Assembly: GCA_964552755.1 (NCBI GenBank) | Contig: CAZKHX010000002.1 | Location: forward strand, 88,903-152,902 | Direction: 5' to 3' | Length of the DNA: 64,000 bases | Source of the DNA: Candidatus Micrarchaeota archaeon | GTDB taxonomy: Archaea; Micrarchaeota; Micrarchaeia; Anstonellales; Bilamarchaeaceae | Shown: positions 579 through 52,628 of the stretch, in pieces | Position numbering within the stretch: position 1 is the first letter of the stretch | Layout of the letters: each line of letters begins with the position of its first letter | Made by a program: the position numbers and the translations under genes | Notes under the pieces: model-generated | What the model was told of the DNA's origin: nothing | The model's database searches: none | Seen by the model: only the letters and a program-made list of their open reading frames with translations

Positions 579-666
579 GAATATAAGTATAAAATGATAT
601 ATTTAAAAGACCCACCGGCACCGCACCCCCGAATACCTTTATAACCTCTTATTGCGATTTTACGGC

Positions 667-2202
667 ATGAAGCCCCTCGGCACAGTGATTTCCACCGAAG
701 AAAACCCCACCACAGTGGACTTCGCATTCGTCCTTGAAAAAGAAGCAGGAGTGAAGAAGAACCAGTTCGTGCAGACCATGAACCACGAAGGCACGGTCTT
801 CGGCCTGCTGAAGGAAATCACGCGCGCAAACCGCTACTTCGAGCGCGCGGAATCCGTTGCCGAATATGAAAAGGAAGGCCCAATCTCCGCGCATTTCCCG
901 GTTGATTCATGGGAATATACCGTTGGCGAAGTGAAAATCCTCGGCCTCATGCTCGAGCAGGATGGGAGGTACCGCAACTGGCGCGTCTCCCTCCCCCCGT
1001 CCCCAGGCGCAAAAGTCCTCCCGGCGCCCGACCGCATGCTTAAGGATTTCGTCGGCTTCAGGGAGAATGGCCTCATGCTCGGCAAGCTCCAGAACCACAA
1101 CGTTGACGCAAAAATAGACATGACGCGCCTGCTCCAGAAGCACCTTGCGGTGCTTGCGCAGTCCGGCGCGGGGAAAAGCCACACGGTTGCGGTGATGCTG
1201 GAGGAGCTCCTGGGCCGCAAGGCCGAGGACGGCAGGATATCCGTAGTGATAATAGACATTCACGGAGAATATGCCGGCTTCAAGTCCGACCCCAGCTATT
1301 CAAAGAAAACCCGCATAATCATGGGCAGGGACATCTCGGTCCCGTTCTCCCACCTCTCGCCCGGCATGCTCGGCACATGGTTCCCGAACATGAGCGGCCC
1401 GGCAAGGCAGGAAGTTGCGAAAATCCTCAAGGCACTGCATTCCGAATCGAAAACAAGCAGGCAGCTCTTCGGCCTCAAAGACCTCATCGACCGCGTGCTT
1501 TCTTCAGGAATCCACCAGAACGTCAAAGGCACCATCCTCCGCGACCTGTACGAGCTTCAGGCGATGCGCTTCATCCACCCGTCCAAGCAAAAGCCCAACC
1601 TCTACGAGGCGGTGAAACCCGGCGAGATGCTCGTGCTCGACCTTTCCGACCTGGACGAAGCAACCAAGAAGAAGATGCTGGTCACCTACATCGCCTCCCG
1701 CCTCTTCAAACTGAGGAAGAAAGAGAAAATCCCGCCTTTCCTTTTGGTAGTGGAGGAGGCGCACAATTTCGCCCCGGAAAAGGTGAAGATGGCGCATTCC
1801 CCCTCCAAGTCCATAATAGAGAAAATCGCAAGGGAGGGCAGGAAGTTCGGCGCAGCCCTGTGCGTGGTTTCCCAGCGCCCTGTCCAGCTCAGCACGACCA
1901 CGCTCAGCCAGTGCAACACCCACCTCATCCTACGCGTCACCAACCCCAACGACCTGGACCACATAGGCAAGAGCTCGGAGGGAATAGATTCCACCATGCT
2001 CCGCTCGATAACCGGCCTTAAGGTCGGCGAGGGCATAATCGTTGGCGAAGCGGTCAACTATCCAATCTTCGTGGAAATCCGCGACCGCAAATCAAAGAAA
2101 ATGGAGAAGGGCAGGCCCCTCCACGAGCAGGCAATTTCCTTCGAGAAGGAGGAACGCAGGAAGGAAGAGGAGGAAGACGAGGAGCTGGAAGCGTTCCTCT
2201 GA
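667..2202 (+). CDS. HerA-like (FtsK/HerA superfamily, DUF87-type) P-loop ATPase
   Basis: Walker A LAQSGAGKSHTVAV, Walker B LLVVEEAHNFAP, an N-terminal HAS-barrel-like region and an acidic C-terminal tail. Start moved from the TTG at 652 to the ATG at 667, which lies 26 nt downstream of TATA-like CCTTTATAACC (636-646). Confidence 0.8.
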   Translation: MKPLGTVISTEENPTTVDFAFVLEKEAGVKKNQFVQTMNHEGTVFGLLKEITRANRYFERAESVAEYEKEGPISAHFPVDSWEYTVGEVKILGLMLEQDGRYRNWRVSLPPSPGAKVLPAPDRMLKDFVGFRENGLMLGKLQNHNVDAKIDMTRLLQKHLAVLAQSGAGKSHTVAVMLEELLGRKAEDGRISVVIIDIHGEYAGFKSDPSYSKKTRIIMGRDISVPFSHLSPGMLGTWFPNMSGPARQEVAKILKALHSESKTSRQLFGLKDLIDRVLSSGIHQNVKGTILRDLYELQAMRFIHPSKQKPNLYEAVKPGEMLVLDLSDLDEATKKKMLVTYIASRLFKLRKKEKIPPFLLVVEEAHNFAPEKVKMAHSPSKSIIEKIAREGRKFGAALCVVSQRPVQLSTTTLSQCNTHLILRVTNPNDLDHIGKSSEGIDSTMLRSITGLKVGEGIIVGEAVNYPIFVEIRDRKSKKMEKGRPLHEQAISFEKEERRKEEEEDEELEAFL

Positions 2203-2291
2203 CGTTTTCTCCGGGAGCGCCCCAAGGAATACGTTTATAAACTCTTACTACCACTATATTATCACAATTTGACACAGCATAGCTGGTATTT

Positions 2292-4673
2292 ATGGCACAC
2301 AAACTAATGGGGCCCAAAGCAAGGGGCGCCCAGACCGCAGCCGGGAAAATGCAGGGGCAGAACCTCGCTTCCGAGACGGAGGCAAAGCTCAGGCCCACCC
2401 AGATGGGCCTTTCCTTTGATTCCGAGCAGAAAGCAGTCGCAAACCGCCTCCTGCACACGTTCTTCATCGCTCCGGAGAAGTGGGAGAATGCAATCAATTC
2501 CGAGCTCGCGAAGTGCCCGGAAAACCAGAGGGAGCATTTCCTCAAGTGGCTTGCAAGGAGCCCGTTCTCAAGGACCCCCTCCAACTGGAGCAGGGAGGAC
2601 ATCCCCCGGTTCCTCAGGGGCAGGGTGGACACCCCGCTCGACGAGCTGAGGTACCGCCTCGAGCTGTTCATAAGCTGCTGCGACCCCACTGCCGAGCGCA
2701 GTGTCGTGCAGCACACCCAGCAGAAGCACACCCTCCTGGAATTCCCCGGGGCAGTCACGTTCATTGACCAGTCCAACTCCACCAAGATGGCCCGCGGCAA
2801 GGGCGCGAAGGAGCTTTCCGCGGTCACCGACTGGATGCACCTCTACCTCCGCGCGGCGAGCATCCCCTTCCGCACCATGAAGGACGTGCTGGTGGGCGAC
2901 GCCCTATCAGGAGTGAATATCGCGCCCGAAGGCAACATGGTAGCTTGCGCGACCGACGCCGCGAGGTTCCTGGTGACCGTGCGTGCGTTCTTCCGCCTGC
3001 ACAACGAAATCGTGGACTACGAGCTTGAGCATTACGGCCACTCCCGCTCGACCAAGATAAACGTGAGGAGCGCGCTCGCGCTCAGCGACCCCTCCCTCGG
3101 CAACATAGTCATCAACAAGAACGACCTCCAGCCGCTCGCGGTCTGCGACGTGATGAACTTCGCGGCGCGCATTTCCGGGGTTCCGCAGGAGGGCCAGATA
3201 ATCGTCTCCAAGGAGGCAAGGAAGCACCTCAACCCGTTCTTCATACTCGAGAGGATAGACCCAGGGGAGAGCATAAAGGCCCTTCTCCGGAAGACCGAAG
3301 AAGGGCTTGAGCCCCTCATGCACTCCAGCCCGAAGAACAAGGCGGAGCTGATGCAGAAGCTTGAGCTGCTCTACACTGCGGCGAGGCTGAACTACCTGCT
3401 CTTCGACATATTCGAGAGGCCGAACATAAAGGACGCCGACATGGAGAAAGAAGAGCCGCCCTTCCTTTCCCAGAAGGAACTCTACATGCGCGAGTTTGAG
3501 AAGGCGGCCGTGGAAGGCCTCAAGGGCAAGATTGTCACCGAAGGGGAATACCTCGATGGCGTCCAGCAGGTGAAATTCGACGTCGAGAGGGAATTCGCGA
3601 AGGAGCAGTACTCCAAGAGGCCGAAGTTCAAGGGCTACGACGAGGAGCAGCTGAACGAGCTGTACATCCTGGTGGACTACCGCACCTTCAGGAGCGACAG
3701 GATGTCTGCGCCGCCCACCTCCCGCTTCGAATCGCTTTATCTCCACAGGCTCCCTGCGGAGGAGAGGGAGCAGATGACCGGCGCGGAGAAGAACGCCGAC
3801 GACATGAAGCTTTGCGCGATAGAGCAGTTCGTCGACGACGTTGCAAAGGCGTACGGCATCCCCACGAAGACCAACTTCAACCCGCTCGCTTCCGCGTACG
3901 TGATGTACACCATGCAGATGACGGGCGCACCCGCCTTCGCCTACAACGTTGCCACCAGGGCGGCCGGAGTAATGCTCTATACGCTCGAGCACATGCAGAA
4001 GAACTGGGGCCGCCAGCCCGACCAGTACCTCACCCAGCTGCAGGGCAAGCTCGTGGATCTCGGCGTATTCGACGGCGAGGGCAACATCAACGAGGAGAAG
4101 CTCAAGGACTACCTCGCAAAAGACGTCATCCTGCCCGCGCTCTCCGCGGAGTTCGGCCTCATGAAGATGTTCGACGACAGGGAGCAGTTCGACGCGTTCC
4201 TACGCACCGAAGCGACCGCCCGCCTCATGGGCCGCAAGATTTACTACGTGAACCAGGAGCAGGGCGAGGACGTCGCGGACGACATAATCAACATGCATCT
4301 CGTCTCCAGGAGCCTGCTCGAGGGCATGAACGCACGCTGCAGGGAAAGCGGAAACCCCGAGCCCATCCCCCAGGAAACCCTTTCCGTGCTGGAGAGGATT
4401 TCATTTAGCGAGAAGAACAGGGGCATCGAGGCGGCGAACGGAGACGAGCACGACCTCGCGGCGCAGGCAATTGTGATGTGCAGGATAATCGAGACCGACC
4501 GCCACAGGAAGGCGTTCGAGAGCGAGAGGCCGCCCCAGAACTGGGTCTCCATCTACGATGACGACATAAAGGGGACTAACGGAGTGGTCTACCCCCATCT
4601 CGCGACCGTCTTCAGGGAGCTCTTCCTCCTCACCGCGGACGGCAAGCGGGTGAAAGGGGAGCTTCTCCAGTAG
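2292..4673 (+). CDS. Large protein with a class III nucleotidyl (adenylyl/guanylyl) cyclase-homology domain (about aa 150-325) and an unassigned 470-aa C-terminal region
   Basis: Motif pattern matches the class III cyclase fold: AVTFIDQSNSTKMA (F-x-D metal Asp), VLVGDALSGV (G-D-A second metal Asp), INVRSALALSD, and CDVMNFAARISGVPQEGQIIVSKEARKHL (N-x3-R plus the 'pgqIlvs' strand). Recognised by eye only. Confidence 0.6.
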   Translation: MAHKLMGPKARGAQTAAGKMQGQNLASETEAKLRPTQMGLSFDSEQKAVANRLLHTFFIAPEKWENAINSELAKCPENQREHFLKWLARSPFSRTPSNWSREDIPRFLRGRVDTPLDELRYRLELFISCCDPTAERSVVQHTQQKHTLLEFPGAVTFIDQSNSTKMARGKGAKELSAVTDWMHLYLRAASIPFRTMKDVLVGDALSGVNIAPEGNMVACATDAARFLVTVRAFFRLHNEIVDYELEHYGHSRSTKINVRSALALSDPSLGNIVINKNDLQPLAVCDVMNFAARISGVPQEGQIIVSKEARKHLNPFFILERIDPGESIKALLRKTEEGLEPLMHSSPKNKAELMQKLELLYTAARLNYLLFDIFERPNIKDADMEKEEPPFLSQKELYMREFEKAAVEGLKGKIVTEGEYLDGVQQVKFDVEREFAKEQYSKRPKFKGYDEEQLNELYILVDYRTFRSDRMSAPPTSRFESLYLHRLPAEEREQMTGAEKNADDMKLCAIEQFVDDVAKAYGIPTKTNFNPLASAYVMYTMQMTGAPAFAYNVATRAAGVMLYTLEHMQKNWGRQPDQYLTQLQGKLVDLGVFDGEGNINEEKLKDYLAKDVILPALSAEFGLMKMFDDREQFDAFLRTEATARLMGRKIYYVNQEQGEDVADDIINMHLVSRSLLEGMNARCRESGNPEPIPQETLSVLERISFSEKNRGIEAANGDEHDLAAQAIVMCRIIETDRHRKAFESERPPQNWVSIYDDDIKGTNGVVYPHLATVFRELFLLTADGKRVKGELLQ

Positions 4674-4713: not shown

Positions 4714-6054
4714 ATGCGCTCGCTTTTGCTTTGTTTGCTGCTTTTCAGCTTCATTGCTTCGGCTGCCGTGCCGCCCGAAGCCCCTGAAAAGCTGCAGCAG
4801 GTGCAGCAAGAACACGCACTTGCTCCGGAGCCGGCCCAGAGCGAGCTCCTCCGGGCAGAAGGGGCACCGGTAAAACTAAGCCCGGAATCCATGGAAAAGA
4901 TTGCCGCCGTAGAGCGCGCAATCGTGCACAGCTTCCCAGAGCCCACCCTGCGGGGCGTCGTCTCCTCCCGCGGCTACCTCGTGATGGGCGAGGATGTTTC
5001 CATCCTTGAAAAGGCGCTTGTCGCCAGCCTTGCCCAGCGCGATGCCGTTTTCTCCGCATTCCGCAAGGTGCCCGGCCCGGAAGAGGCGGAAAAGCTTCTT
5101 GTGGGCGAGAACTTCATTCTAGTGATAGGCGGCCCGTCCCAGAACGAGTTCGCGGCGGAACTCGAAAAGCAGGGCCTTGCAACGGACGAGCAGGTTCTCG
5201 ATGAAGGCATGATACTCCGCAGCGGGGAGCTCCCCTCCGGCGCGGAATTCCTCATAGTTTCCGACAAGCGGGGCTACATGAACGTGCGCAAGGAGGGGCT
5301 CTACAGCTCCCCCCTCGCCTCTTTTCTGCCCCACTGGGCGGTCGCCCCCGCTGCGTTCCTGCTATCGGTCCTCGGCCTTGCCGCAATCCCGGTCATCCGC
5401 ATCTATCTCGCGGGCATCTTCAAGTCCAAGGAAAAGCCGACCAAGGGGAAGCCCGAGCCCGAGGCTCCGGGCATACAGCTGTTCGGGGTAAGGGTGCGCT
5501 ACCAGGAGGTATTCTCGGTCTTCATAGGCGCATTCGTCTATGGCATGGGCGTCGCCTACCTGTTCACCGGGCTTAGCTGGGACATTCTCCTCATGGGCAT
5601 CGCCTCCGTAATCTTCGTCGCAATCCTATACTACCTCCGCTCCCTCACCCGCTGGATATTGGACAGGCGCCACGGCACCGACTCGGAATACGTGGTCTGG
5701 AAGACCGGCAGCGCGCTCTGCTGGGCAACGGCGCTCTGCGGCTTCACCCTCCAAACGCCCGGCTTCGAGGTGGACGAGGTTCCGGAGGAGAAGAGGCCCC
5801 ATTCCGCGAAGATGAAGCTCGCAGTGCTGGGCATGGCGATGGCGGTCGCCCTCATAATATTCGCCATCAATTTCCTCTGGCCCCACCCTTGGCTCCAGGC
5901 CTACATGTGCGTCGCCTCGGCAATCGCGGTGACCGAAATACTGCCGTTCAAGCCCATGCCCGGCGCAGACATCAAGTCCTGGGATGGCAAGGTGTGGGCA
6001 TTTACATTTTTCACCTTCATCCCCACCTATTTCCTGATAAACTTCCTGCTTTGA
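4714..6054 (+). CDS. Secreted/membrane protein, unknown family (signal peptide + soluble domain + C-terminal multi-TM domain)
   Basis: 446 aa. It has signal peptide MRSLLLCLLLFSFIASAAVP, a roughly 190-aa soluble part and then about 6 hydrophobic helices. TATA-like CTTTAAGTTTT lies 21-31 nt upstream of the ATG. A T5 tract follows the stop. Confidence 0.6.
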   Translation: MRSLLLCLLLFSFIASAAVPPEAPEKLQQVQQEHALAPEPAQSELLRAEGAPVKLSPESMEKIAAVERAIVHSFPEPTLRGVVSSRGYLVMGEDVSILEKALVASLAQRDAVFSAFRKVPGPEEAEKLLVGENFILVIGGPSQNEFAAELEKQGLATDEQVLDEGMILRSGELPSGAEFLIVSDKRGYMNVRKEGLYSSPLASFLPHWAVAPAAFLLSVLGLAAIPVIRIYLAGIFKSKEKPTKGKPEPEAPGIQLFGVRVRYQEVFSVFIGAFVYGMGVAYLFTGLSWDILLMGIASVIFVAILYYLRSLTRWILDRRHGTDSEYVVWKTGSALCWATALCGFTLQTPGFEVDEVPEEKRPHSAKMKLAVLGMAMAVALIIFAINFLWPHPWLQAYMCVASAIAVTEILPFKPMPGADIKSWDGKVWAFTFFTFIPTYFLINFLL

Positions 6055-6288: not shown

Positions 6289-7227
6289 ATGGGGCTTTAT
6301 AAACTGCTTAATACACTATATATAACTGGTGGGACCGTGGGAGCAAAACTCGCCGCCCCCGAGAAGGCGCGGCAGCCGAAGAGGGAGCGGACCAAGTCCG
6401 AGCAGTTCCGGGCACTCCAGCTGGAGCCGCCCAAGGCACTTTCCCTGCCCGCCACCGCTGATTACCACCGCATAGAAAAAAAGTTCGCAAAGAGCGGAAG
6501 CGGCCGCACCCCTGTGCCAATAGTGCAGGACACCGACCGCATCGCCACTGAAACCTACGAAGACATAATAATGGGCAGGATGCTCCCTGCAGGCCCCGGG
6601 CTCCCGGAGATGGAGAAGCCCTTCCACGAGGATCTCATGAAGAGCCTCAAGTCCGCAATAGACCAGCTCATACTCCTCCTCGACCAGTACAATACCGCTT
6701 CCCTCACGCTCAAGCGCAGGTTCAGGCGCCGCGTAAAGGAAACATGGGATGAGCTCCCCAAGCTCGCAACTGTGGCCCACAAGGCCGCCGCAAAAGTCGC
6801 AGGCATAGGCATATTCGGCTCCTTGTGGGGCGCAGTCTACCTTGCAATCAACCAATATGTCTCCCAGCCGGTCGCCCTAATAATCACCGCAGGCGCCGCG
6901 TTCGTGGGCTTTTTCGCGGCCAACCGCACAACCGCGAAGTTCGCTGCGCCATGGCTGCGCGCATTTGACGAATGGCAGTTTGGCGCTCGCCTGTCCATTG
7001 TGCGCTGGAGATATTCCCGCAAGAAGGTAAAGAAGCTCCAGGCCCTTGCCACCGTGGTGCGGGATGAAATCTCGCGCGTGCACGACCAGAAGCCGCCCCA
7101 GACCAAGGAGGGGCGCAAACTCATGGAGGCAGCGATAAAAGAGCAGAACCGCACGATAAAAGAGCTCTGCTCCACCCTGCCCAACCCCCGCGAGCCCAAG
7201 AATCCCGACTACGAAATCTCCGGCTGA
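6289..7227 (+). CDS. Hypothetical membrane-associated protein
   Basis: 312 aa. It has a basic N-terminus, a central pair of hydrophobic helices (GIGIFGSLWGAVYLAINQYV, ALIITAGAAFVGFFAA) and a basic/coiled C-terminus. No family recognised. Confidence 0.5.
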   Translation: MGLYKLLNTLYITGGTVGAKLAAPEKARQPKRERTKSEQFRALQLEPPKALSLPATADYHRIEKKFAKSGSGRTPVPIVQDTDRIATETYEDIIMGRMLPAGPGLPEMEKPFHEDLMKSLKSAIDQLILLLDQYNTASLTLKRRFRRRVKETWDELPKLATVAHKAAAKVAGIGIFGSLWGAVYLAINQYVSQPVALIITAGAAFVGFFAANRTTAKFAAPWLRAFDEWQFGARLSIVRWRYSRKKVKKLQALATVVRDEISRVHDQKPPQTKEGRKLMEAAIKEQNRTIKELCSTLPNPREPKNPDYEISG

Positions 7228-7282
7228 GCCACCGGAAATGCACCCTCATTTTCTTTAAAAGCATCATTCCCGCGCTAAATCC

Positions 7283-8455
7283 ATGGTTTCCCCCCAGAAG
7301 GTCTCTTCCCTCTCGGGAAGCGCCTTCTTCGACATGGAGAACTGCGATGCGGCCACCCACATCCCGCTGGGCAGCTCCAGCGTGCCCATATACAAGGCCA
7401 CCACCCCGAGGGGCAACTGCAACCTCTTCAAGACGCTCCTCACGAACCACTGCAAGATGGACTGCAGGTACTGCATGAACTCAAAGTGCAGCAGCCGCAG
7501 GCAGCCCGCGTCCTACAAGCCCGCGGAGCTTGCGCAGGTATTTCACTTATTCTGGAGGAAGGGGCTCGTTCAGGGCCTGTTCCTCAGCTCCTCAATAGAG
7601 GACCCGGTGAAAAACATGGAGGAGATGCTCGAGGCAGTGGCCATATTGCGCCACCGCTACTTCTTTGGGGGCTACGTGCACCTCAAGATACTGCCCGGGG
7701 CTGAGAGGGACCAGGTTGAAAGGGCCGCCCGGCTTGCCGACCGCCTCTCGATAAACCTCGAGAGCATCTCCCCATCTCACCTTTCCGAGCTTTCATCCAC
7801 AAAGGACTTCAAGAATGACATACTCAAGAGGCAGGGCTGGATCAGGGAAATCCTCAAGAGGAAGGGTCGGACCAGCAATGCGGGATTGCCCCCTGAAAAC
7901 GGGGCCAAAGGCGCTGCGCGCCACCCCCGCACTGCTGCTAGCCATACCACCCAATTGATCGTGGGCGCCCTGGGCGAAACCGACCGTGAAGTCTTCCGCA
8001 CAGCAATACTGGAATACAGGCACATGGAGATCAGGCGCATGTACTATTCACCGTTTTCACCCCTGGAAGGCACCCCGCTTGAGCGCGGAAACCCCGCGCC
8101 CAGGTGGCGGGGCCACCGATTGTACCAGCTGGACTGGCTATACCGCGAATACAGGTTCTCCGAGCGCGAGGTGTTCTCCGCAATGGAGGAGGACTTCCTC
8201 CCCAATGCAGACCCCAAGGTAACAATCGCGCGCGCCTTCTTCGGGGAGAAGCGCCAGGAGCTGAACGGCCTCTCCTATGATGACCTCATCCGCATCCCGG
8301 GCATAGGGCCCAGGACCGCCCAGAAGCTTTCAGAAGCGAAGGAGCCGCTAAGGACCTGCACCCAATTGAAGAAGCACGGCGTTAACCTCCGCCGCGCCCT
8401 CCCCTTCATAAAAGTGAACGGCCACGCGCAGACGACGCTCGCCGGCTTCAACTAG
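7283..8455 (+). CDS. Putative DNA modification/repair radical SAM protein (TIGR03916-like) with C-terminal helix-hairpin-helix
   Basis: CX3CX2C cluster motif (NHCKMDCRYCMN), HRLYQLDWLYREYRF and an HhH motif LIRIPGIGPRTAQKL. The roughly 390-aa length matches that family. Confidence 0.7.
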   Translation: MVSPQKVSSLSGSAFFDMENCDAATHIPLGSSSVPIYKATTPRGNCNLFKTLLTNHCKMDCRYCMNSKCSSRRQPASYKPAELAQVFHLFWRKGLVQGLFLSSSIEDPVKNMEEMLEAVAILRHRYFFGGYVHLKILPGAERDQVERAARLADRLSINLESISPSHLSELSSTKDFKNDILKRQGWIREILKRKGRTSNAGLPPENGAKGAARHPRTAASHTTQLIVGALGETDREVFRTAILEYRHMEIRRMYYSPFSPLEGTPLERGNPAPRWRGHRLYQLDWLYREYRFSEREVFSAMEEDFLPNADPKVTIARAFFGEKRQELNGLSYDDLIRIPGIGPRTAQKLSEAKEPLRTCTQLKKHGVNLRRALPFIKVNGHAQTTLAGFN

Positions 8456-23827: not shown

Positions 23828-23899
23828 TAGCTCCCCGCCGTGTCTTCTCACTTATTCTTTTCCAAAATCTTTATTAAGCATACCTTTAACATATACGCC

Positions 23900-25654
23900 A
23901 TGGAGTTCGATGAGCTGCTCATCAGTACAGGAGTGGATGCGCTAATTCGCCTTCTGAAGGAAAAGAAGCGCATCGAAATCGGGATGGCGTCGAAACTCCT
24001 CAACATCCCGCAGGGAACGCTCGAGGACTGGGTATCCGTCCTGGAAGACCAGGGCATCATAAAAGTTGAATACCGGCTCACCGATGTCTACCTTGTCTGG
24101 GCCGCGGCAACCCCCGAAGAGATAAAGGAGGAGAAAAAGCAGTTCAAGGCAAAGAAGGAGGTTGTCGAAAAGGAGCTCAAGCTCCTCGACAGGACGCAGA
24201 AGGTGGGGAAGGAGGAGCTCGACAAGCAGGCCGAGGCGGTCACCCGCCTGTACGCCCATTTTGAGGACTCGTTCAAGAAGCTGGAAATCCTTTCCGAGCA
24301 GCTCAGGAACATACAGGAAATGCGTGCGGACATCGCGCAGAGCTCCCTGAAAAAAATCTCCGACACCACTGAAAAGGTGAAGGACATCAACGACTCGGTC
24401 ACCCTGCTCGAGGCCGAGCTCGGCGAATACCGGAAGATGTTCGGGAAGACCGACGTCCTGGAGAAGATGGAAAACGTTTCCGAGATGAAGGGCCGCGTTG
24501 ACGCCCTCGACAAAAAAGTGAAGGAAGTGCTGAAAAAGGCGGAGCCGGTGCTAAAGGGGGGCAAGGCGAAGCCGGGCGTGGAAGTGGGCTCGCTATCCAA
24601 GGATTTCGAAAAGCTCGCGGGCGAATTCACGAAAATGAAGGCGGAGTCCGCCGCCCTCAAGGCAACCATTGGCGATTTCAAGAAGAACGCGGAGGTGCTC
24701 GCTACCGCGCAGGACCTCGTGACCGAAGTGAACAGGCGCGCGACGACCCTGCGCACAAAGGTGGACTCCGCATACTCGAAGCTCCAGTCCCTGAAGGCCG
24801 AAATCCCGGACATGGAGAAGCACCTCCAGGACGACATGGAGCTGATGGAGCATTACGAGGACGCGATATCGGTCGCAAAGGAAATCTCGGACAAGATACC
24901 CACAACCGCGGAGCTGGAGTCCAAGCTTTCCGAAATAGAAAAGTCCGAGCGCATGCTTGATTCCGACTTCAGGAAATTCGAGGCCGCGATTTCCGGGGTT
25001 TCGGGCAGCACGCTGGAGCTCGGCGACCTCATCTCGGAGCTCTCCACGCTCAAGGAAGAGGTTGACGACCTCAGGAAGCAGATGAGCGAGAGCGCGGGCG
25101 AGATATTCGACACGCTTGAGGAGGAAAAGGCAACATACACCACGTTCCAGAAGATAAAGGCAAAATCCAAGCTGTCCCTGGATGGCTACCTGTCCCAGCT
25201 TGAGAAGATAAAGGGCGAGATACGCTCCCTGCTGGACAGGCTTTCCGCACTGGAGGCGGAAACAACGCAGAAGATAGACTCCCTCTCCAGGGAGCTGGAG
25301 AGCGACAGCACTAAGAAGGCAATCGTGCTGCTCGAGGAGCTCATGCGCAAGCGCGACGAGCTGAAGCGGATACGCGAGATAATCGGCGACCTCAACGCCC
25401 GCGCCACGCGCGTGCAGAAGAACATACGGCTGCTCTCCCGAGAGGCGGAGCTCATACACCTGCGCGAGCCAGAGGGCCCCCCCCCGGGTGCGGCGCCCGC
25501 AGCCCCCGCGGAGAAGGGCGGGCTTCCGGAAGGCGTCCCCGTCCCCGAGGGCAGGGCAAGCAGGGTAAAACTCACGTCAACAGAGCAAAAGGACTTCGAG
25601 AGAAAGAGGGCGGAGCTGAAGGATTTGATTAAAAAGTTATGGGATATAGAATAG
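23900..25654 (+). CDS. Winged-helix + long coiled-coil protein (first gene of the pilus-like operon)
   Basis: The N-terminus, GVDALIRLLKEKKRIEIGMASKLLNIPQGTLEDWVSVLEDQGIIKVEY, resembles the wH repeats of the divergent gene. It is followed by about 480 aa of heptad-rich K/E/L sequence. ATG 23900 lies downstream of AT-rich TATA-like elements. Confidence 0.6.
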   Translation: MEFDELLISTGVDALIRLLKEKKRIEIGMASKLLNIPQGTLEDWVSVLEDQGIIKVEYRLTDVYLVWAAATPEEIKEEKKQFKAKKEVVEKELKLLDRTQKVGKEELDKQAEAVTRLYAHFEDSFKKLEILSEQLRNIQEMRADIAQSSLKKISDTTEKVKDINDSVTLLEAELGEYRKMFGKTDVLEKMENVSEMKGRVDALDKKVKEVLKKAEPVLKGGKAKPGVEVGSLSKDFEKLAGEFTKMKAESAALKATIGDFKKNAEVLATAQDLVTEVNRRATTLRTKVDSAYSKLQSLKAEIPDMEKHLQDDMELMEHYEDAISVAKEISDKIPTTAELESKLSEIEKSERMLDSDFRKFEAAISGVSGSTLELGDLISELSTLKEEVDDLRKQMSESAGEIFDTLEEEKATYTTFQKIKAKSKLSLDGYLSQLEKIKGEIRSLLDRLSALEAETTQKIDSLSRELESDSTKKAIVLLEELMRKRDELKRIREIIGDLNARATRVQKNIRLLSREAELIHLREPEGPPPGAAPAAPAEKGGLPEGVPVPEGRASRVKLTSTEQKDFERKRAELKDLIKKLWDIE

Positions 25655-25672
25655 AATGGGTCTGGTGAGCTG

Positions 25673-27316
25673 ATGGCCGAAAAGAAATCCGGAAAAAATT
25701 CTTCGAAGAAGGAAGAAAGCATGGAAGAAAGGAAGAGCAAGCTTATGTCTGAATTTGAGGACGAGCCCGAGGACGCCGGGGAGGCCCTTGAGGCCGTCGA
25801 GGGGCAGCCCGAAGTCTACGACCCCATGAAGAGGGGCAAGGAGAAGGTGCTGGAATCATATTCCTTCCTCAGCGAGAACATCCCGGTGGAAGTCTCCATC
25901 GTGCAGAAGGACGATTTCGTCCCCTACTACACCGTCTCAATCCCCGGGATTGCCGGAGGGACCAAGCTGCTACTTGAAACCAAGCTCCGCGGCGAGCTCA
26001 TCACGCGCGTGAAGCTGGACATCACCGATATCCTCGACCCGAAAAAGGCGCCGGTAGTGAAGAAGAAATTCGAGGATGCGGCAATGCAGGTGCTGCAGGC
26101 CAACTTCCCGCAGCTTACCGAAGAGAAGATGAAAATCCTCGCATCCTACCTCGTGCAGGGCACCCTTGGCCTTGGCGAGCTGGAGACGCCGCTCCACGAT
26201 GAATACCTCGAGGAAATCGTTGTCAACAACGCAAAGGACCCGGTATGGATATACCACAAGAGGTATGGCTGGTGCAAGACCAACATACGCATGAAGGACG
26301 AGGAGCAGATATACGACTACTCTTCGCTCGTCGCGAGGAAAGTCGGCAGGCAGATAAACATACTGTCCCCCACCCTCGATGCGCATCTCGCCTCCGGCGA
26401 CCGTGTAAATGCGACGCTCTCGCCCGTTTCCTCGTTCGGGAACACCCTCACAATCAGGAAGTTCTCCAAGAACCCGTGGACCATCACCAACCTCATCCGC
26501 ACCGAGTCCATCACGCCCGATGTCGCGGCGCTCATCTGGACCTGCGTGCAGAACGAGCTCTCGCTCGTAATCTCAGGCGGCACCGGTTCGGGCAAGACGT
26601 CTTTCCTGAACGCGCTCTCCGGGCTCATCCCGGCAAGCCAGCGCATCGTTTCAATTGAAGACACGAGGGAGCTCACCCTTCCGTCCTTCCTGCACTGGGT
26701 GCCCATGGTCACCCGCGAGGCGAACCCCGAGGGCAAGGGCGAGATAACGATGCTTGACCTCATGGTGAATGCCCTGAGGCAGAGGCCGGACAGGATAATC
26801 GTCGGTGAAATAAGGAGGCAGCGTGAGGCTGAAATCCTGTTCGAGGCAATGCACACCGGCCACGCAGTATATGCAACCCTGCACGCGGACAACACGGAAG
26901 AGACAATCTCGAGGCTCACCAACCCGCCCCTCAACATCCCGGAGGAAATGCTCGACGCCCTTTCAGGAGTTATCGTGCAGTACAGGCACAGGCGCCTCAA
27001 CATCCGGCGCACGCTGGAGTTCTCCGAGATGCTCAAGCGCGGCGAGTTCAACACAATCTACCGGTGGGACTCCAAGACCGACAAGACCAACAAGGTTGGC
27101 AACCTCGACCGCATCGCGGACCTGCTCAACCTCTATTCCGGCATGACGCCCAAGGAAATAGATGCAGACGTCAGGGAAAAGGTGGGAGTGCTCAACTGGA
27201 TGGTCGACCACGGCTACGAAGCTGTGAATGAGGTCGGCGCCCTGGTTTCCCACTACTACGCGAACCCGGAAGAAGTGCTTGAATCGGTAAAGAAGAATGA
27301 GAAGTGGACTTTCTGA
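25673..27316 (+). CDS. Type II/IV secretion-family ATPase (archaeal FlaI/PilB/TadA-like)
   Basis: Walker A SGGTGSGKTSFLNAL, Asp box RIVSIEDTREL, Walker B-like DRIIVGEIR and His box GHAVYATLHA. SD GGTGA upstream. Confidence 0.88.
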   Translation: MAEKKSGKNSSKKEESMEERKSKLMSEFEDEPEDAGEALEAVEGQPEVYDPMKRGKEKVLESYSFLSENIPVEVSIVQKDDFVPYYTVSIPGIAGGTKLLLETKLRGELITRVKLDITDILDPKKAPVVKKKFEDAAMQVLQANFPQLTEEKMKILASYLVQGTLGLGELETPLHDEYLEEIVVNNAKDPVWIYHKRYGWCKTNIRMKDEEQIYDYSSLVARKVGRQINILSPTLDAHLASGDRVNATLSPVSSFGNTLTIRKFSKNPWTITNLIRTESITPDVAALIWTCVQNELSLVISGGTGSGKTSFLNALSGLIPASQRIVSIEDTRELTLPSFLHWVPMVTREANPEGKGEITMLDLMVNALRQRPDRIIVGEIRRQREAEILFEAMHTGHAVYATLHADNTEETISRLTNPPLNIPEEMLDALSGVIVQYRHRRLNIRRTLEFSEMLKRGEFNTIYRWDSKTDKTNKVGNLDRIADLLNLYSGMTPKEIDADVREKVGVLNWMVDHGYEAVNEVGALVSHYYANPEEVLESVKKNEKWTF

Positions 27317-27325
27317 GGAGAGCTG

Positions 27326-28894
27326 ATGGATTTCCGCGAGGCGCAGGAGGAAGTCGCCAAGGTCGAGTCAAAATCCCTTGGTTACGAGACCCCCAGCGGC
27401 CCTGCACCCCAGAAGCTCAGGCAGGCGCTGACCGTTTCGCCCCCTTCAATTACGCAGATGTCTTACCTTGAGGCGCTGGCAGGATACAACCGCATAGAGA
27501 AGGTGATAGGCGCTTCCCGCTTTGAGGAGCTCCTGCTGCCAGAGGGCGAAAAGCCCGCGGAGGAGATGCCCGCTCCGGAAGCGATGCCTGCCCCCGAGGA
27601 GGCAAAGCCCCCAGAAAAGAAAGAGCTCCCCAAGCCGGAAAAGGAAATCCCGGCCCCGGAGAAAGAGGAAAAAGAAGCAATCCCCAAGAAGGAAGAAGCA
27701 CCCGTTCCCCGGAAAAGGGAAGAGCCGGAATTCGAGGAAATTCCGGAAGAAGAGGAGCCCGCAATGCCGGCAGTCCCCCCGAAGGCCCCGGAAGTGAAGA
27801 AAGAGCTCCCTGTCGAATTCGAGGAAATTGAGGAGGAGGCGGAAAAGCCAAAAGAGGCGAAGCCGGAGTTTGAGATAGAATTCGAAAAGCCGGGCGGGGA
27901 AACCGCCGCCCCTCCTGCAGCGCCCCCGCCGCCCCCGCCTTCGGAGGAGAAAGCCGAAACAAGGCCCATCGAGCCCAAGCCGTCGCCGGGCGTTGCGTTT
28001 CCCCCGGTTGAAATCCCAATCCCGCCCGAGCTTTCAGCTTCCCCGGAGGAAGCCGCGGCGAAAACAATGGGGCGCCTCAGGGCGCAGTATGGCGCGAAGA
28101 AGGGCAGGAGGCCCGCCGCCGCGGACAAGACCGAAGTGAAGAAGCGCATGCTCGAGCTCACCCGCGAGCTTTTCAAGGAAAAATCCGTGGGCAGGAGGGA
28201 AGAGCTGAAGAAGGAAATCGTTTCGCTCAAGAACATGCTTTCCGCGCCCGGAGGCGGCAGGGCCAAGAAGGCCGACTTTGCAGGCATACTTGAAAAGGAG
28301 CAGGAATATGAGCTCTCCGAGGCGAAGAAGGGCATCGAAAATGCATACCAGTCCTCGCTTGTCCCCCTCAAGTCCACGCTCGCAGAGCAGGTTGCCCTCG
28401 GGAAGGCGGAGCAGGCATACCCCCAGTTTTCCCAGCGCTTGGGCGAGCTTAAAGGCCAGCTGCAGGCGCTCACCCAGTCCTACCAAAGCTACCTGCTGAA
28501 GAAGCACTCCGCGGAGCTGGAAGCGCTCGTGCCCGAATCAAAGTCTGCGAAGCTCAGGAAGCGCCTCTCCTCCATCCAGGCCGATTATGCGGAAGCCTTT
28601 TCCGGGATGGGGGAAGCGCTCGACAGCCAGATGGCCTCCCTGCTCGCGAAGCAGGAGGCGCTCGGGAAGGGCAGGCTGGACGAGAAGACGCGCAAGGTTA
28701 TGGAGATTTCCGAGAAAACCGACGAGGAACTGCTCATCGCGCTGCAGAAGGAAGACCCGCGCATGTACGCAAAATACTCGCGCGGCGAGCTCTCCCGCCT
28801 GGAAGCGCTCTCAAATGCGCGCCGCACGCTGGCGAAAAAGGCCGGGCTGCCGGCATCTGTCATTAATAAATATTTTGGTGGTAAAAACAAATAG
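27326..28894 (+). CDS. E/P/K-rich disordered + coiled-coil protein, unknown family
   Basis: About 230 aa of PAPE/PEKE-type low complexity including PPPPPPS, then about 270 aa of helical heptad-like sequence. SD GAGGAG upstream. Confidence 0.6.
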   Translation: MDFREAQEEVAKVESKSLGYETPSGPAPQKLRQALTVSPPSITQMSYLEALAGYNRIEKVIGASRFEELLLPEGEKPAEEMPAPEAMPAPEEAKPPEKKELPKPEKEIPAPEKEEKEAIPKKEEAPVPRKREEPEFEEIPEEEEPAMPAVPPKAPEVKKELPVEFEEIEEEAEKPKEAKPEFEIEFEKPGGETAAPPAAPPPPPPSEEKAETRPIEPKPSPGVAFPPVEIPIPPELSASPEEAAAKTMGRLRAQYGAKKGRRPAAADKTEVKKRMLELTRELFKEKSVGRREELKKEIVSLKNMLSAPGGGRAKKADFAGILEKEQEYELSEAKKGIENAYQSSLVPLKSTLAEQVALGKAEQAYPQFSQRLGELKGQLQALTQSYQSYLLKKHSAELEALVPESKSAKLRKRLSSIQADYAEAFSGMGEALDSQMASLLAKQEALGKGRLDEKTRKVMEISEKTDEELLIALQKEDPRMYAKYSRGELSRLEALSNARRTLAKKAGLPASVINKYFGGKNK

Positions 28895-28907
28895 GAGATG
28901 GTGAAAA

Positions 28908-29798
28908 ATGGCCGAGAAAAAGAAAGTCTCTCCGGTTGCCGTTCCAGTAAGGTCAAGGAGGAAGGCGGCAAAGCCGGTCCGTTTCATTTCGGAAAAGCTG
29001 TTCCCCTACTTCCCTGACCTGAAGAAGAAGCTGGTTGTCGGGGACATCCAGCAGACTTCCGAGGACTTCCTCGACAAGGTCGTGGTCTCGTCCATCTTCA
29101 CCGCAATCGCGCTCACAATCGTGACGTTTGTGTTCTTCAATATGCTGTTCATCAACATGATGTTCCTCATCCCCCTGTTCTTCCTGTACCTGCTCCTTTC
29201 CTTCGGGTATTTCATGATGTACCCCTCGGTCAGGGTGCTGAAGCGCAGGAGGGACATCGACTACGAGCTCGTGTTCGCGGGCAGGCATCTCCTGATTGCG
29301 CTCAAGTCGGGCATGCCCCTCTTCGATGCCCTCGTGGGCGTGTCCCGCGGTTATGGGGCGGTTTCCGAGGAATTCAACAAGATAGTTGAGAAGGTCACGC
29401 TCGGCGTGCCGATGTCGCAGGCGATGCGCGAGGTAATCCAGACTTCGCCTTCCCCGGACTTCAACCGCGTAATCCTCCAGATTGCCAACTCGCTCTCCTC
29501 AGGAGCAGATGTCGCAGAGGCGCTCGAGGTGATACTCAACCAGATATTCCGCGAGCAGATCATCGCGCTGAAGGCATACGGCCAGAAGCTCAACCCGCTG
29601 GTGATGTTCTACATGATTTTTGGCATCATCTTCCCCTCGCTGGGGATGGCGTTCGCGATAATCCTGTTCTCGCTGCTCGGCGCAGGCAGGTTCGGCATGT
29701 CCGGCTCCCTGCTCGTGCTGGCGTTCATACTGATAGCAGTAGTGCAGTTCCTGTTCCTCTCCATGGTGGAGAGCTCCAGGCCGAGGTACGCGATATGA
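28908..29798 (+). CDS. Type IV pilus/Tad platform protein, single T2SSF domain (TadB/TadC-like)
   Basis: T2SSF-like helical domain (DYELVFAGRHLLIALKSGMPLFDALVGV...SSGADVAEALEVILNQI) flanked by TM helices. SD GGAGATGGTGA upstream. Confidence 0.7.
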   Translation: MAEKKKVSPVAVPVRSRRKAAKPVRFISEKLFPYFPDLKKKLVVGDIQQTSEDFLDKVVVSSIFTAIALTIVTFVFFNMLFINMMFLIPLFFLYLLLSFGYFMMYPSVRVLKRRRDIDYELVFAGRHLLIALKSGMPLFDALVGVSRGYGAVSEEFNKIVEKVTLGVPMSQAMREVIQTSPSPDFNRVILQIANSLSSGADVAEALEVILNQIFREQIIALKAYGQKLNPLVMFYMIFGIIFPSLGMAFAIILFSLLGAGRFGMSGSLLVLAFILIAVVQFLFLSMVESSRPRYAI

Positions 29799-29807
29799 GG
29801 GATTGAA

Positions 29808-30872
29808 ATGGGAGTGCTCATGGGATTTTATGAAACGGTCGGCAGGCTTCTGTCAAGGGAAAGGATAAGGAGCACGGAAAGGACGCTCAGGAATGCGGGC
29901 ATTACCGCCCCTGCGGAAAGCTTCGTAGGCTTCCTGCTGGTAGTGAACATCCTGCTCACCCTCGTTGTGTTCTTCCTTGGGCTCCACTACCAGGTGCTGC
30001 CTTCGTTCCTGCTCTCGGTGCTCGGCCCCACGGTCTTCCTGCCGGAATGGGCCAACATAATCTTCACATTCGTGCTTGCTCTGGCGGCGGTGTTCCTTGC
30101 GAGCGCCACCCTCGTGTGGGTGCTGCTCCTGCTCCAGATTGAGGCGCGGAGGATGGCCGTCGAGGCCGTGCTCCCCGACTTCCTCGGCCTCATGTCCGGG
30201 AATGTCCGCTCCGGAATGACGATAGACCAGGCGATGTGGTACGCCGCAAAGCCGGAGTTCGGCATCCTCTCAATCGAAATCAGGAATGTAATCAAGAGCG
30301 CATTCTCCGGAGAGCCCTTTGAGAAGGCGCTTGACCGCCTTTCCGCGCGCTTCAACTCGAAGATACTGCGCAGGACCATCCTGCTCATCAAGCAGGCGAT
30401 GGCCACGGGAGGCGAAGTCGCGGAAATCCTAGAGATTACTGCGGAGGACGCAAGGGAAGTGGCAATCCAGAAGAAGGACATCTCCTCAACGCTCCTCATC
30501 TACATCATCTTCCTCATATTCGCGGCTGCGGTGGGGACTCCGTTCCTGTTCGCGGTCTCGAACAAGCTCATAGGCGTGCTGTTCGTGGCATTCTCATATA
30601 TGCCCGCGGGCGCGCCGGTGGAGGGGAATGTGCCCTACACGTTCTTCGTGCAGCCCAGCGCTCCGCTGATCACCACGGAGGAGTTCTTCTGGTTCAGCGT
30701 CGCGACGCTCTTCCTCACCTGCCTCATCTCCTCGCTACTGCTCGGAGTGATACAGGCAGGCTCGAAGATGCAGGGGCTGAAGTACTTCCCCTTCATGCTG
30801 GTGCTGGCGTACATCATCTATTTCGTGGTGTCGTCCGTGCTGGAGAGTTACTTTGCGTCAATGCTCATATGA
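29808..30872 (+). CDS. Type IV pilus/Tad platform protein, single T2SSF domain (second paralog)
   Basis: LPDFLGLMSGNVRSGMTIDQAMWYAA...ATGGEVAEILEITAED plus TM helices. SD GAGGGA upstream. Confidence 0.7.
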   Translation: MGVLMGFYETVGRLLSRERIRSTERTLRNAGITAPAESFVGFLLVVNILLTLVVFFLGLHYQVLPSFLLSVLGPTVFLPEWANIIFTFVLALAAVFLASATLVWVLLLLQIEARRMAVEAVLPDFLGLMSGNVRSGMTIDQAMWYAAKPEFGILSIEIRNVIKSAFSGEPFEKALDRLSARFNSKILRRTILLIKQAMATGGEVAEILEITAEDAREVAIQKKDISSTLLIYIIFLIFAAAVGTPFLFAVSNKLIGVLFVAFSYMPAGAPVEGNVPYTFFVQPSAPLITTEEFFWFSVATLFLTCLISSLLLGVIQAGSKMQGLKYFPFMLVLAYIIYFVVSSVLESYFASMLI

Positions 30873-37994: not shown

Positions 37995-38081
37995 GTGTTT
38001 TCACCTATAAATATTCTAATTATATGTGTTAAACCACACCTTTTTTAAATATTGCTGTGCACAATACATAGCGGGGTAAAC

Positions 38082-39422
38082 ATGGTTTCAGCAAGGCCAG
38101 GGGTTGTAATCGGGGAAAAGGGAAGAAGGAACGGCGCGCAGTTCAGGGGCAGGATAAGGGATGCCTCGCGCGAAGCGGAGATAAGGCAGCTCAGGGGCTT
38201 CCTTGCGGAAATGCAGCAGAACCTTGCCGCTGCCCAGAAGCGGCTTGACGCGCTGCTGGGGGCGGGGCATGAGCGGATTACCGTGACTTTCATAGAAAAC
38301 GACCTCCCTCTGGCCGCGCTGCCCATGGAAACGGGCGGCATGCCGTTCAGCCCGAAGGCGCTGCCTGCGAGGGGAACCCCGGAGCGCATTGAAGAAACCG
38401 GGCGCACAGTTGAACCGAAGCGCATTGAGGAACTCAAATGTGCGGCGGAACCAGTGCACGCGGAGGAAGCCGCTCACACCGCAGAGAATGCGCCGTATGA
38501 AAAATGGCTGTGGTCCTGGGCGCTCATAAAGAAAATCGCAAGGCGCGCGGAGGGGCAGGATTTCTCCAGCGAGAGGGTGGAGGACTTCGCCAGGAACGTC
38601 GTGCTCAACGAATCCGACCTCGACATGCTGGAGATGAGGATGCACGCGGAAAGCGACTGGAAGGCATTGGGCGCTTTCCTGGAGAGCCTTTATGATTTTG
38701 CGGAGATGGAGGCAATCCCCGCAGTTGCCCTGCCTGCGCTCAGGGGCGCGATAAGGGAATGCAGGCACATCAACCTGAAGATAGACGGGATAGATTTCGA
38801 TATATACGCGCTCAATGCGGCGATGGCCGTTGCGAAGATGGTGATGGCCGGCGAGGTGGACATCGGGGATACCCGGATAGATGCGGACGGGCAGTACCTT
38901 TCCGAATGGATTGCAAGGGCAAGCGGAGCGGCCATCCCGGAAACCATGGAAATCGGCTTTGGTGCGGAAGACGCTCCGGTAAGGGTTGGCAGAGGCAGGT
39001 TTGCAAGGGCCGCGGCAATCGGCGCAAGCGTGCTGGGGCTGGCCGCTGCGTCCTTCGCGGGATGGATGCTCCTGAGGCCGGTGCCCGGGAGCGATGCCGA
39101 AATGCCAAATGGGCAGAATGCCGCCGTTTCCGCAGAGCCTTCTGTTGTTGCATCCGCTGCGGGAACATCGCCCTCTGCAGCGGCGCAGCAGCCTGAAGCA
39201 AAATCGAAGGCAGCGGAAGAAGTGCCGGGGAAAGCCGATGCTGCCCCTGAAGGAACCAGCGCGCCTGCGGAAAAACCCGGTAAAAAAGCGAAAGCAGCGC
39301 ATAGTGCTCACAAGGGAAAAGGGCCGGGCGAAAAGCCGGTTCCGCACCCGCACAAAAAGAAAGCCGGGCACAATCAGGCCCTGCAGGCAAAGCCCGCAGG
39401 GATAGATTTGGACGAGTGGTGA
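38082..39422 (+). CDS. Hypothetical protein with single TM and basic/Ala-Pro-rich C-terminal tail
   Basis: Start set at ATG 38082 (the track start is a TTG), about 30 nt downstream of TTTAAATA. TM AAAIGASVLGLAAASFAGWMLL. The stop overlaps the next ATG (TGATG). The antisense 427-aa ORF looks like a shadow. Confidence 0.5.
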   Translation: MVSARPGVVIGEKGRRNGAQFRGRIRDASREAEIRQLRGFLAEMQQNLAAAQKRLDALLGAGHERITVTFIENDLPLAALPMETGGMPFSPKALPARGTPERIEETGRTVEPKRIEELKCAAEPVHAEEAAHTAENAPYEKWLWSWALIKKIARRAEGQDFSSERVEDFARNVVLNESDLDMLEMRMHAESDWKALGAFLESLYDFAEMEAIPAVALPALRGAIRECRHINLKIDGIDFDIYALNAAMAVAKMVMAGEVDIGDTRIDADGQYLSEWIARASGAAIPETMEIGFGAEDAPVRVGRGRFARAAAIGASVLGLAAASFAGWMLLRPVPGSDAEMPNGQNAAVSAEPSVVASAAGTSPSAAAQQPEAKSKAAEEVPGKADAAPEGTSAPAEKPGKKAKAAHSAHKGKGPGEKPVPHPHKKKAGHNQALQAKPAGIDLDEW

Positions 39423-49092: not shown

Positions 49093-49134
49093 GAAAACCG
49101 CCTCCCGCGTGGTGTTCTTTTACGCCGGAATAGA

Positions 49135-49142
49135 TTTATATT
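49135..49142 (+). promoter_or_regulatory. TATA-box candidate for the six-gene membrane operon (leaderless start at 49166)
   Basis: TTTATATT lies 24-31 nt upstream of ATG 49166, in the 73-nt divergent gap between leuS and the first paralog. Confidence 0.4.
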
Positions 49143-49165
49143 CCTTAGTCGCCTTGTATAAAAGC

Positions 49166-51358: not shown

Positions 51359-51359
51359 C

Positions 51360-52625: not shown

Positions 52626-52628
52626 AAA

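Follow-up and report, generated by a model that had tools for sequence, protein, structure and literature searches.

Introduction

Archaeal HerA is the helicase of the HerA-NurA end-resection system (structure 4d2i); its gene canonically shares an operon with nurA, plus mre11 and rad50 in thermophiles, and in known defence systems HerA pairs with effectors, as in the anti-phage SIR2-HerA and DUF4297-HerA. Class III nucleotidyl cyclases carry their metal-binding Asp residues in a beta1 'FxDxxxxT' and a beta2-beta3 'GDA' motif, specify the base with a Lys/Asp pair for ATP or a Glu/Cys pair for GTP, and all dimerise to form active sites. In receptor-type members (mycobacterial Rv1625c, mammalian transmembrane adenylyl cyclases, CHASE-domain cyclases), the cyclase is tied to a membrane or extracellular sensor, and in the anti-virus system Pycsar a PycC-type cyclase acts with an effector (PycTM or PycTIR) that binds cyclic nucleoside monophosphates (cNMPs). 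In this study, we analyzed a stretch of 64,000 nucleotides (nt) from a Candidatus Micrarchaeota archaeon (assembly GCA_964552755.1, contig CAZKHX010000002.1, positions 88,903 to 152,902, forward strand), the whole of which is called the window, where the gene of a HerA-like ATPase (open reading frame 1, ORF1) is followed by that of a 793-amino-acid protein (ORF2, p793). The original prediction had read these two genes as a possible signalling or defence pair. Our findings indicated that unrelated units stand side by side here, a housekeeping HerA backbone and an accessory cyclase cassette formed by p793 and the next gene, p446, which likely encodes a split receptor-cyclase; our confidence in this reading is slightly better than even. 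The parts under study are these, in window coordinates:

667 to 2202, + strand: HerA-like hexameric-type ATPase (ORF1), 511 amino acids from the ATG at 667
2203 to 2291, + strand: intergenic spacer between HerA and p793, 89 nt
2292 to 4673, + strand: p793 (ORF2), 793 amino acids, predicted soluble; here the founding member of an apparently Micrarchaeota-restricted family
2409 to 2726, + strand: N-terminal helical region of p793 (residues ~40-145), from the secondary structure of the model; no known homolog
2727 to 3266, + strand: predicted class III cyclase-homology domain of p793 (residues ~146-325), from Foldseek, profile alignment and conservation
3267 to 4670, + strand: C-terminal region of p793 (residues 326-793), largely helical in the model; no PDB or Pfam similarity
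4714 to 6054, + strand: p446; signal peptide at 1-19, S-layer-like ectodomain at 20-203, then a polytopic membrane domain

Both ORFs were as originally described, co-directional and 89 nt apart, and an alternative TTG start at 652 would lengthen the HerA protein to 516 amino acids (652-2202). In the titles and abstracts of the papers that literature searches retrieved, no description of a HerA-cyclase system, of Micrarchaeota cyclases or of the p793 family was found.

A divergent class III cyclase domain in p793

Sequence libraries did not recognize p793. Pfam, NCBIfam and PADLOC returned no match to ORF2 at E≤0.1, phmmer found none among PDB sequences at E≤10, and PF00211 was detected neither in the isolated p793 segment (E≤10) nor in 13 family members (E≤5). 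When a profile of the p793 family was compared with PDB sequences, the top four matches were class III cyclases (RhGC 6aoa, 6ao9, 5oyh and 6sir), with CyaB in seventh place; E values were only 0.1-1.9 (0.1-0.8 for the top four), and the alignment spanned the whole catalytic domain. In the alignment to RhGC, D159 and D203 fell on both metal-binding Asp residues, R259 on the Arg of 'NIRIG', and the N289/R293 pair on Asn and Arg of 'VNTASR', a mapping that draws on a weak HMMER alignment together with conservation: all five residues were kept in 12 of 12 full-length members, down to 22% identity.

Structure prediction pointed to the same domain. The first AlphaFold model, built with five close homologs only, was useless (predicted local distance difference test, pLDDT, 42.6) and was replaced by a second (AF2) from a diverse alignment of 13 sequences, with a pLDDT of 84.1 and a predicted template modelling score (pTM) of 0.84. 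The second model contained a beta-alpha-beta-beta-alpha-beta unit at residues 153-322, and every one of the top 50 Foldseek matches in the PDB was a class III adenylyl or guanylyl cyclase domain (E 4.6e-8 to 1.4e-5, probability 1.00, target-normalised template modelling scores of 0.64-0.79 for isolated domains, 14-23% identity). The best matches in a viral structure library were also guanylate-cyclase domains, and GGDEF proteins appeared only at E~0.4. The model therefore indicated that residues ~146-325 form a real, very divergent class III cyclase-homology domain, as had been proposed for the 793-amino-acid protein from the sequence, a result that is notable since the sequence libraries miss it.

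Compared with described class III cyclases (PF00211; RhGC 6sir/6ao9, CyaC 1wc1, Rv1625c 7yz9, CyaB 3r5g), p793 shared the predicted fold over ~180 residues and, in register, both metal Asp residues, the beta4 'RxG' Arg and the Asn-x3-Arg pair, so that its catalytic core is apparently intact. It differed in being undetectable by PF00211, in its lack of the canonical purine-specifying residues, in the embedding of the domain in proteins of 730-810 amino acids with novel N- and C-terminal regions, and in its occurrence in a few Micrarchaeota only. No transmembrane segment was predicted in p793. The N-terminal (~40-145) and C-terminal (326-793) regions matched no known sequences in Pfam or by profile against the PDB, and the C-terminal half was not assignable to any fold, as its Foldseek list was saturated by cyclase-domain matches.

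The family proved to be small. A word-indexed search of 5.8 billion proteins yielded only four p793 homologs, with no further members when it was repeated with the p793 profile, and an exhaustive profile search gave 13 matches among 1.84 billion representatives, six of them distant full-length members at 22-37% identity. A scan of reference-genome contigs returned nothing with a shallow p793 alignment; with the diverse alignment it returned three metagenome-assembled genomes (MAGs) with family members, all labelled Candidatus Micrarchaeota. One further candidate, P0015 (1973 amino acids, nine matched stretches), was rejected as a spurious low-complexity repeat protein. The searches thus indicated a family restricted to a few Micrarchaeota, known from ~10 lineages, several of them on short contigs.

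Conservation was strongest around the predicted active site. Across 10 aligned sequences, the residues invariant in the middle region were G153, D159, S163, R194, D198, G202-D203-A204, R225, T229, R259, C285, M288-N289, R293 and G296, and all except T229 were kept in 12 of 12 full-length members, including two MAG-derived sequences. The C-terminal region carried the invariant motifs FERPN, KFKGYD, TNFNP and YxMxTMQxTGxP.

p446, the usual partner of p793

A p446 homolog lay directly 3' of the p793 homolog in eight of the 10 lineages whose contigs reach far enough (the window and the related contigs L001, L002, L006, L008, L011, L012 and L013), with gaps of 29-53 nt (40 nt in the window). L005 had a weaker, N-terminal p446 match at this position, L008 carried two tandem p446 copies, and the L010 contig was too short to show the gene downstream of its p793 homolog. 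p446 is thus the usual partner of p793, in a tight and conserved gene coupling. The exception was the L007/L014 lineage, with a Methyltransf_28 gene (PF02636, 9.1e-16) downstream of the p793 homolog (L007 3197-4012, L014 3570-4532).

The ectodomain of p446 (~185 amino acids) matched Pfam S_layer_C in four of eight members (best 7.9e-7), and its best PDB sequence match was the S-layer protein 9fsa (E 0.031). Its membrane domain, with predicted cytoplasmic loops at 233-265 and 306-368, contained the invariant motifs TLQTxGxE, E..P..PMPG..IK.W and YFLINF, and no cNMP-binding Pfam domain was found in p446 members. At the C-terminus (window 5900-6054), the second of these takes the form E-(I/L/M/V)-(L/M/I)-P-x-x-P-M-P-G-x-x-I-K-x-W, with no conserved HExxH; presumably, it is similar to the site-2 (M50) protease motif NxxPxxPLDG.

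In two related lineages, the cyclase-p446 pair (L008 9506-15812, L012 3893-8812) was located between an upstream DtxR-type iron-dependent repressor and a downstream metal permease, FTR1 or ZIP, one in each contig, and the block stood next to MCM in both. This arrangement, seen in these two lineages only, hints at a link between the cassette and metal homeostasis.

HerA and its neighbourhood

The assignment of ORF1 as a HerA-like ATPase was upheld by several comparisons. Pfam DUF87 ('Helicase HerA central domain') matched at 4.6e-32, PADLOC HerA models at 2.8e-56 for the best, and Sulfolobus HerA (4d2i) at 4.8e-33, with several anti-phage HerAs also among the PDB relatives. Walker A (AQSGAGKSHT) and Walker B (LLVVEEAH) motifs could be read straight from the sequence. 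The N-terminal HAS-barrel was recorded for many HerA orthologs, though it was weak in the window protein (0.0074). ORF1 therefore has the RecA-like DUF87 core, Walker motifs and, weakly, the HAS-barrel of archaeal HerA, and it resembles HerA structures of the repair and the anti-phage kind alike; it remained far under the NCBIfam equivalog cut-offs of both repair and anti-phage HerA (helicase_HerA 187 bits; HerA_antiphage 143 bits with a cut-off of 800).

Relatives of ORF1 were abundant, with 3877 matches at E≤1e-20. The best 120 all had ≥52% identity and formed a smooth series from 97% down, so that orthologs number at least 120 at this level, and the named close ones were nearly all Micrarchaeota/Micrarchaeia. 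These comparisons point to an ordinary, slowly evolving Micrarchaeota HerA ortholog, separate from the cyclase cassette, and not to the special partner originally envisaged. No SIR2 or DUF4297 effector was adjacent to it, and the scanned window ORFs (from position 1 onward) included no NurA, Mre11 or Rad50, in agreement with the original prediction.

A nuclease gene was present near HerA in a relative. In four P0023 contigs (HerA 66% identical), NurA (PF09376, 342 amino acids) ends 3.5 kb 5' of HerA on the same strand, and the order is NurA, four genes, HerA, a 316-amino-acid gene on the minus strand and a radical S-adenosylmethionine (SAM) gene, followed further on by a 435-amino-acid gene, PadR, ABC, CARDB, FtsX and FtsX. 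In this clade, herA and nurA are linked yet not operonic. The window backbone (HerA, radical SAM, p485, then FtsX, FtsX, CARDB and ABC) is that of P0023; the P0023 435-amino-acid gene probably corresponds to p485, as the 433-amino-acid protein at the same position in L019 is 66% identical to p485. Gene tables of the P0023 contigs, which come without DNA, listed no gene for a 730-810-amino-acid protein within 10 kb of HerA. The radical-SAM gene of the window belongs to the HerA backbone and stands outside the cyclase cassette, because it is syntenic with HerA in the L001, L002 and P0023 contigs.

The adjacency of HerA and p793, on which the proposed functional pair depended, was not conserved. 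HerA was directly upstream of p793 only in the window (L003 and L004 represent the same organism) and in L001 (HerA 84% identical). It was 3.7 kb downstream of p793 in L002, past three or four genes, one of them on the opposite strand, and 2.4 kb downstream of the p793 homolog in L006. In more distant lineages, no HerA was found near the p793 homolog of L008 (10 kb each side) or in the available flanks of L011, L012 and L014; the 10 kb upstream of the L013 homolog lacked it as well. Conversely, L016/L017 and L018 (HerA 54-55% identical) had one or more unannotated genes of ~265-275 amino acids after HerA, then an ELP3-like radical-SAM gene, and no p793 within 6 kb of HerA. With at least 120 HerA orthologs and ~13 p793 representatives, a p793 neighbour is therefore impossible for most of the HerA genes. 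Divergence also differed within L006, where p793 was 37% and p446 52% identical to the window proteins and HerA ~71% over the 65 N-terminal residues on the contig. The adjacency is best read as a neighbourhood coincidence, and a functional module is not supported.

Around the HerA of L016 and L018, some further genes were noted (L016 7567-8394, L018 7551-9202). The L016 275-amino-acid and L018 268-amino-acid proteins are homologous, with signal-peptide-like N-termini; the 264-amino-acid protein of L018, whose gene directly adjoins HerA, is related to neither. A radical-SAM gene is found near HerA in both the window-type and the L016/L018-type clade, and the radical-SAM types differ. The window p312 (described below) and radical-SAM proteins were compared with the genes downstream of the L016/L018 HerA and were not homologous to them.

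Promoters and shared upstream elements

As originally noted, HerA and p793 each had a TATA-like element. The upstream elements, and the radical-SAM gene with which one of them is shared, were located as follows:

612 to 628, + strand: promoter-proximal element CCACCGGCACCGCACCC upstream of HerA, common to the radical-SAM gene and not to p793
632 to 644, + strand: HerA BRE/TATA-like element (BRE, transcription factor B recognition element) AATACCTTTATAA, ~23 nt before the ATG at 667
2228 to 2240, + strand: p793 TATA-like element AATACGTTTATAA in the spacer, ~50 nt 5' of the ATG
7229 to 7245, + strand: second copy of the promoter-proximal element, CCACCGGAAAnGCACCC, upstream of the radical-SAM gene
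7283 to 8455, + strand: radical-SAM protein of putative 'DNA modification/repair' type with C-terminal helix-hairpin-helix (TIGR03916, Pfam Radical_SAM)

The TATA element of p793 homologs, with its ~50-nt leader, was conserved in L001, L002, L005, L006 and L013. The element of consensus CCAC(C/T)GGAAAnnCAC(C/T)C (CCACCGGAAA) preceded the TATA boxes of HerA and of the radical-SAM gene by ~6 nt (window 612-628 and 7229-7245; L001 13927-13943; L002 8196-8212). HerA was preceded by it in the window, L001, L002, L006 and L019, the radical-SAM gene in the window and L001 (and by a degenerate copy in L002), and none of p793, p446 and p312 had it. The element could be an operator shared within a DNA-repair regulon; its pattern was derived post hoc and its statistics are weak, with a chance value of 0.34 and two or more sites reached in 6 of 100 shuffles. 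The radical-SAM protein itself matched TIGR03916 at 9.7e-72 and 242 bits, under the cut-off of 343.5.

The p793-p446 cassette as a proposed split receptor-cyclase, and alternatives

The findings suggested that HerA belongs to a conserved backbone (HerA, radical SAM, p485, ABC/CARDB/FtsX) with NurA a few kb away in a relative, and that the cassette beside it would act on its own. p446 would be the sensor of a surface or membrane cue, and a cytoplasmic p793, docked through its non-catalytic regions and controlled by p446, would make a cyclic nucleotide from a nucleoside triphosphate. p793 would work as a dimer, since all class III cyclases must dimerise for their active sites. We infer the enzymatic activity and dimerisation of p793, its physical interaction with p446 and the signalling role. 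The nearest described counterparts would be the receptor-type class III cyclases, with which the likeness is only one of function: here the cyclase (p793) and the membrane part (p446) come as two proteins, their interaction is a proposal, and the ectodomain is S-layer-like. More specifically, the pair could be an unrecognised split receptor-cyclase native to the DPANN Micrarchaeota, perhaps making an unusual cyclic nucleotide and reporting host contact or metal status, an extension that we put forward tentatively and consider rather doubtful.

Several observations weigh against this reading. The base-specifying pair was not conserved: V, T, A or G stands at -4 from D203, and the position at -7 from N289 is variable, an assignment that hangs on a weak alignment; because the canonical residues are missing, the product of p793 is not predictable and its cyclase activity stays a proposal. 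The structure was predicted, from 13 aligned sequences, the receptor-cyclase mechanism is drawn by analogy, and the lineages number only ~10, several with short contigs. In the L007/L014 lineage, a Methyltransf_28 gene, not p446, follows the p793 homolog. Regarding the separation from HerA, four lineages (window, L001, L002 and L006) keep the gene no more than 4 kb from p793-p446 despite rearrangement, which we attribute to residual synteny with local rearrangement in related lineages; to a clade-limited functional link between HerA and p793 we give very little credence. Likewise, the 13-mer AATACNTTTATAA occurs in the window only upstream of HerA and p793 (chance 0.04) and is also common to both promoters in L001. 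As a co-regulation signal this 13-mer was rejected: it is real in the window and not kept in L002 and L006, where the genes are separated.

Among the alternatives, the one that survives best, though we consider it unlikely, is that p793 is another kind of nucleotidyl-transferase or a pseudo-enzyme scaffold, working with p446 in S-layer biogenesis or metal homeostasis. This would account for the unconserved Lys/Glu and Asp/Cys positions, beside which Asp198 (-5 from D203) is invariant instead, for the blindness of PF00211 to the domain and for the large conserved C-terminal region of unassigned function; the DtxR-type repressor and FTR1 or ZIP permease that flank the pair in two lineages, along with the ArsR regulator in the window, also fit. 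However, the five catalytic Asp/Asp/Arg/Asn/Arg positions are kept across very divergent members, which argues for cyclase-type catalysis, structural comparison gave cyclases only among its best matches, GGDEF proteins being far weaker, and the metal-gene context is confined to two related lineages.

A Pycsar- or CBASS-like anti-virus pair, in which p793 would make a cyclic nucleotide on infection and p446 would disrupt the membrane as its effector, is still less probable. The two-gene layout of a cyclase-fold protein with a membrane protein is similar, the distribution is sporadic and accessory, with variable position and fast evolution, and Pycsar cyclases, which are present in some euryarchaea, are themselves class III-like and have altered specificity residues (PMC10249747). 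Against this, neither p793 nor p446 had a PADLOC match at E≤0.1, p446 has no detectable cyclic-nucleotide-binding domain of the kind carried by Pycsar transmembrane or TIR effectors and looks like an S-layer-type surface protein, p793 has ~600 residues more than PycC, and the pair lies among genes of housekeeping or metal homeostasis and in no defence island.

The weakest alternative, a two-gene module for defence or a DNA-damage second messenger in which a HerA hexamer senses DNA and controls the cyclase, draws on the co-directional adjacency in the window and L001, the spacing of ≤4 kb in L002 and L006, the 13-mer confined to the two promoters, the precedent of HerA-effector pairs and the PADLOC HerA matches of ORF1, and is highly improbable given the ≥120 close HerA orthologs against ~13 p793 representatives, the p793 homologs with no HerA nearby (L008, L011, L012, L014), the HerA genes with no p793 nearby (L016-L018 and the P0023 contigs, the latter with the same backbone and NurA), the relative position that flips between clades, the separate promoters whose likeness is not kept in L002/L006 while the HerA element is common to radical SAM instead, the HerA_antiphage score far under its cut-off, a p793 that PADLOC did not match, and surroundings that held no defence genes and are no defence island.

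Other genes of the window

Two further genes flank the loci described above:

330 to 578, - strand: ArsR-family helix-turn-helix regulator, divergent from HerA (Pfam HTH_5 1.5e-11; context only)
6289 to 7227, + strand: p312, a protein with a single transmembrane segment, found only in the window clade and L001

Within p312, a promoter-like element (TTTATAAACTGCTTAATACACTATAT, 6296-6321), 73% like the p793 promoter, lies inside the called start (6289); translation probably begins further downstream, at a GTG (~6337), to judge by the L001 homolog. The wider window (methionyl-tRNA synthetase, glutamate dehydrogenase, ABC/FtsX transporters, MCM, Trm5 and leucyl-tRNA synthetase) is that of an ordinary archaeal chromosome. 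The scanned window ORFs included no defence genes. Neither paralogs of HerA, p793 or p446 nor Rfam families or tRNAs were found in the window, and the cassette was not flanked by repeats that would mark a mobile insertion.

A type IV pilus/archaellum-like assembly locus, with a T2SSE ATPase and two T2SSF platform proteins, occupies 23840-30872 and is bordered by unannotated ORFs of 604 and 522 amino acids. Large ORFs with no Pfam family were noted just upstream of MCM (456 and 837 amino acids, within 38052-41929) and as five consecutive ORFs of 436, 323, 421, 422 and 369 amino acids at 49076-55003. The 456- and 837-amino-acid ORFs were considered as p446 and p793 paralogs, which comparison ruled out.

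Significance

A 2023 review described cAMP as present in archaea, the annotated archaeal class IV/CYTH 'cyclases' as functionally divergent from true cyclases, and the function of candidate archaeal phosphodiesterases as demonstrated for none (PMC10249747). Against this background, every genuine cyclase-domain family from archaea offers a lead that can be tested. The combination of HerA plus cyclase is not worth pursuing as a defence module, and the narrow distribution of the p793 family limits its general importance, leaving a value that is real but moderate. The family is new, with a predicted class III core that Pfam, NCBIfam and PADLOC missed, a novel architecture and a novel partner in p446, and it shows that divergent cyclase domains can slip past sequence-profile annotation. 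Archaeal cyclic-nucleotide synthases are largely missing, and a split receptor-cyclase, if true, would be a concrete candidate for one.

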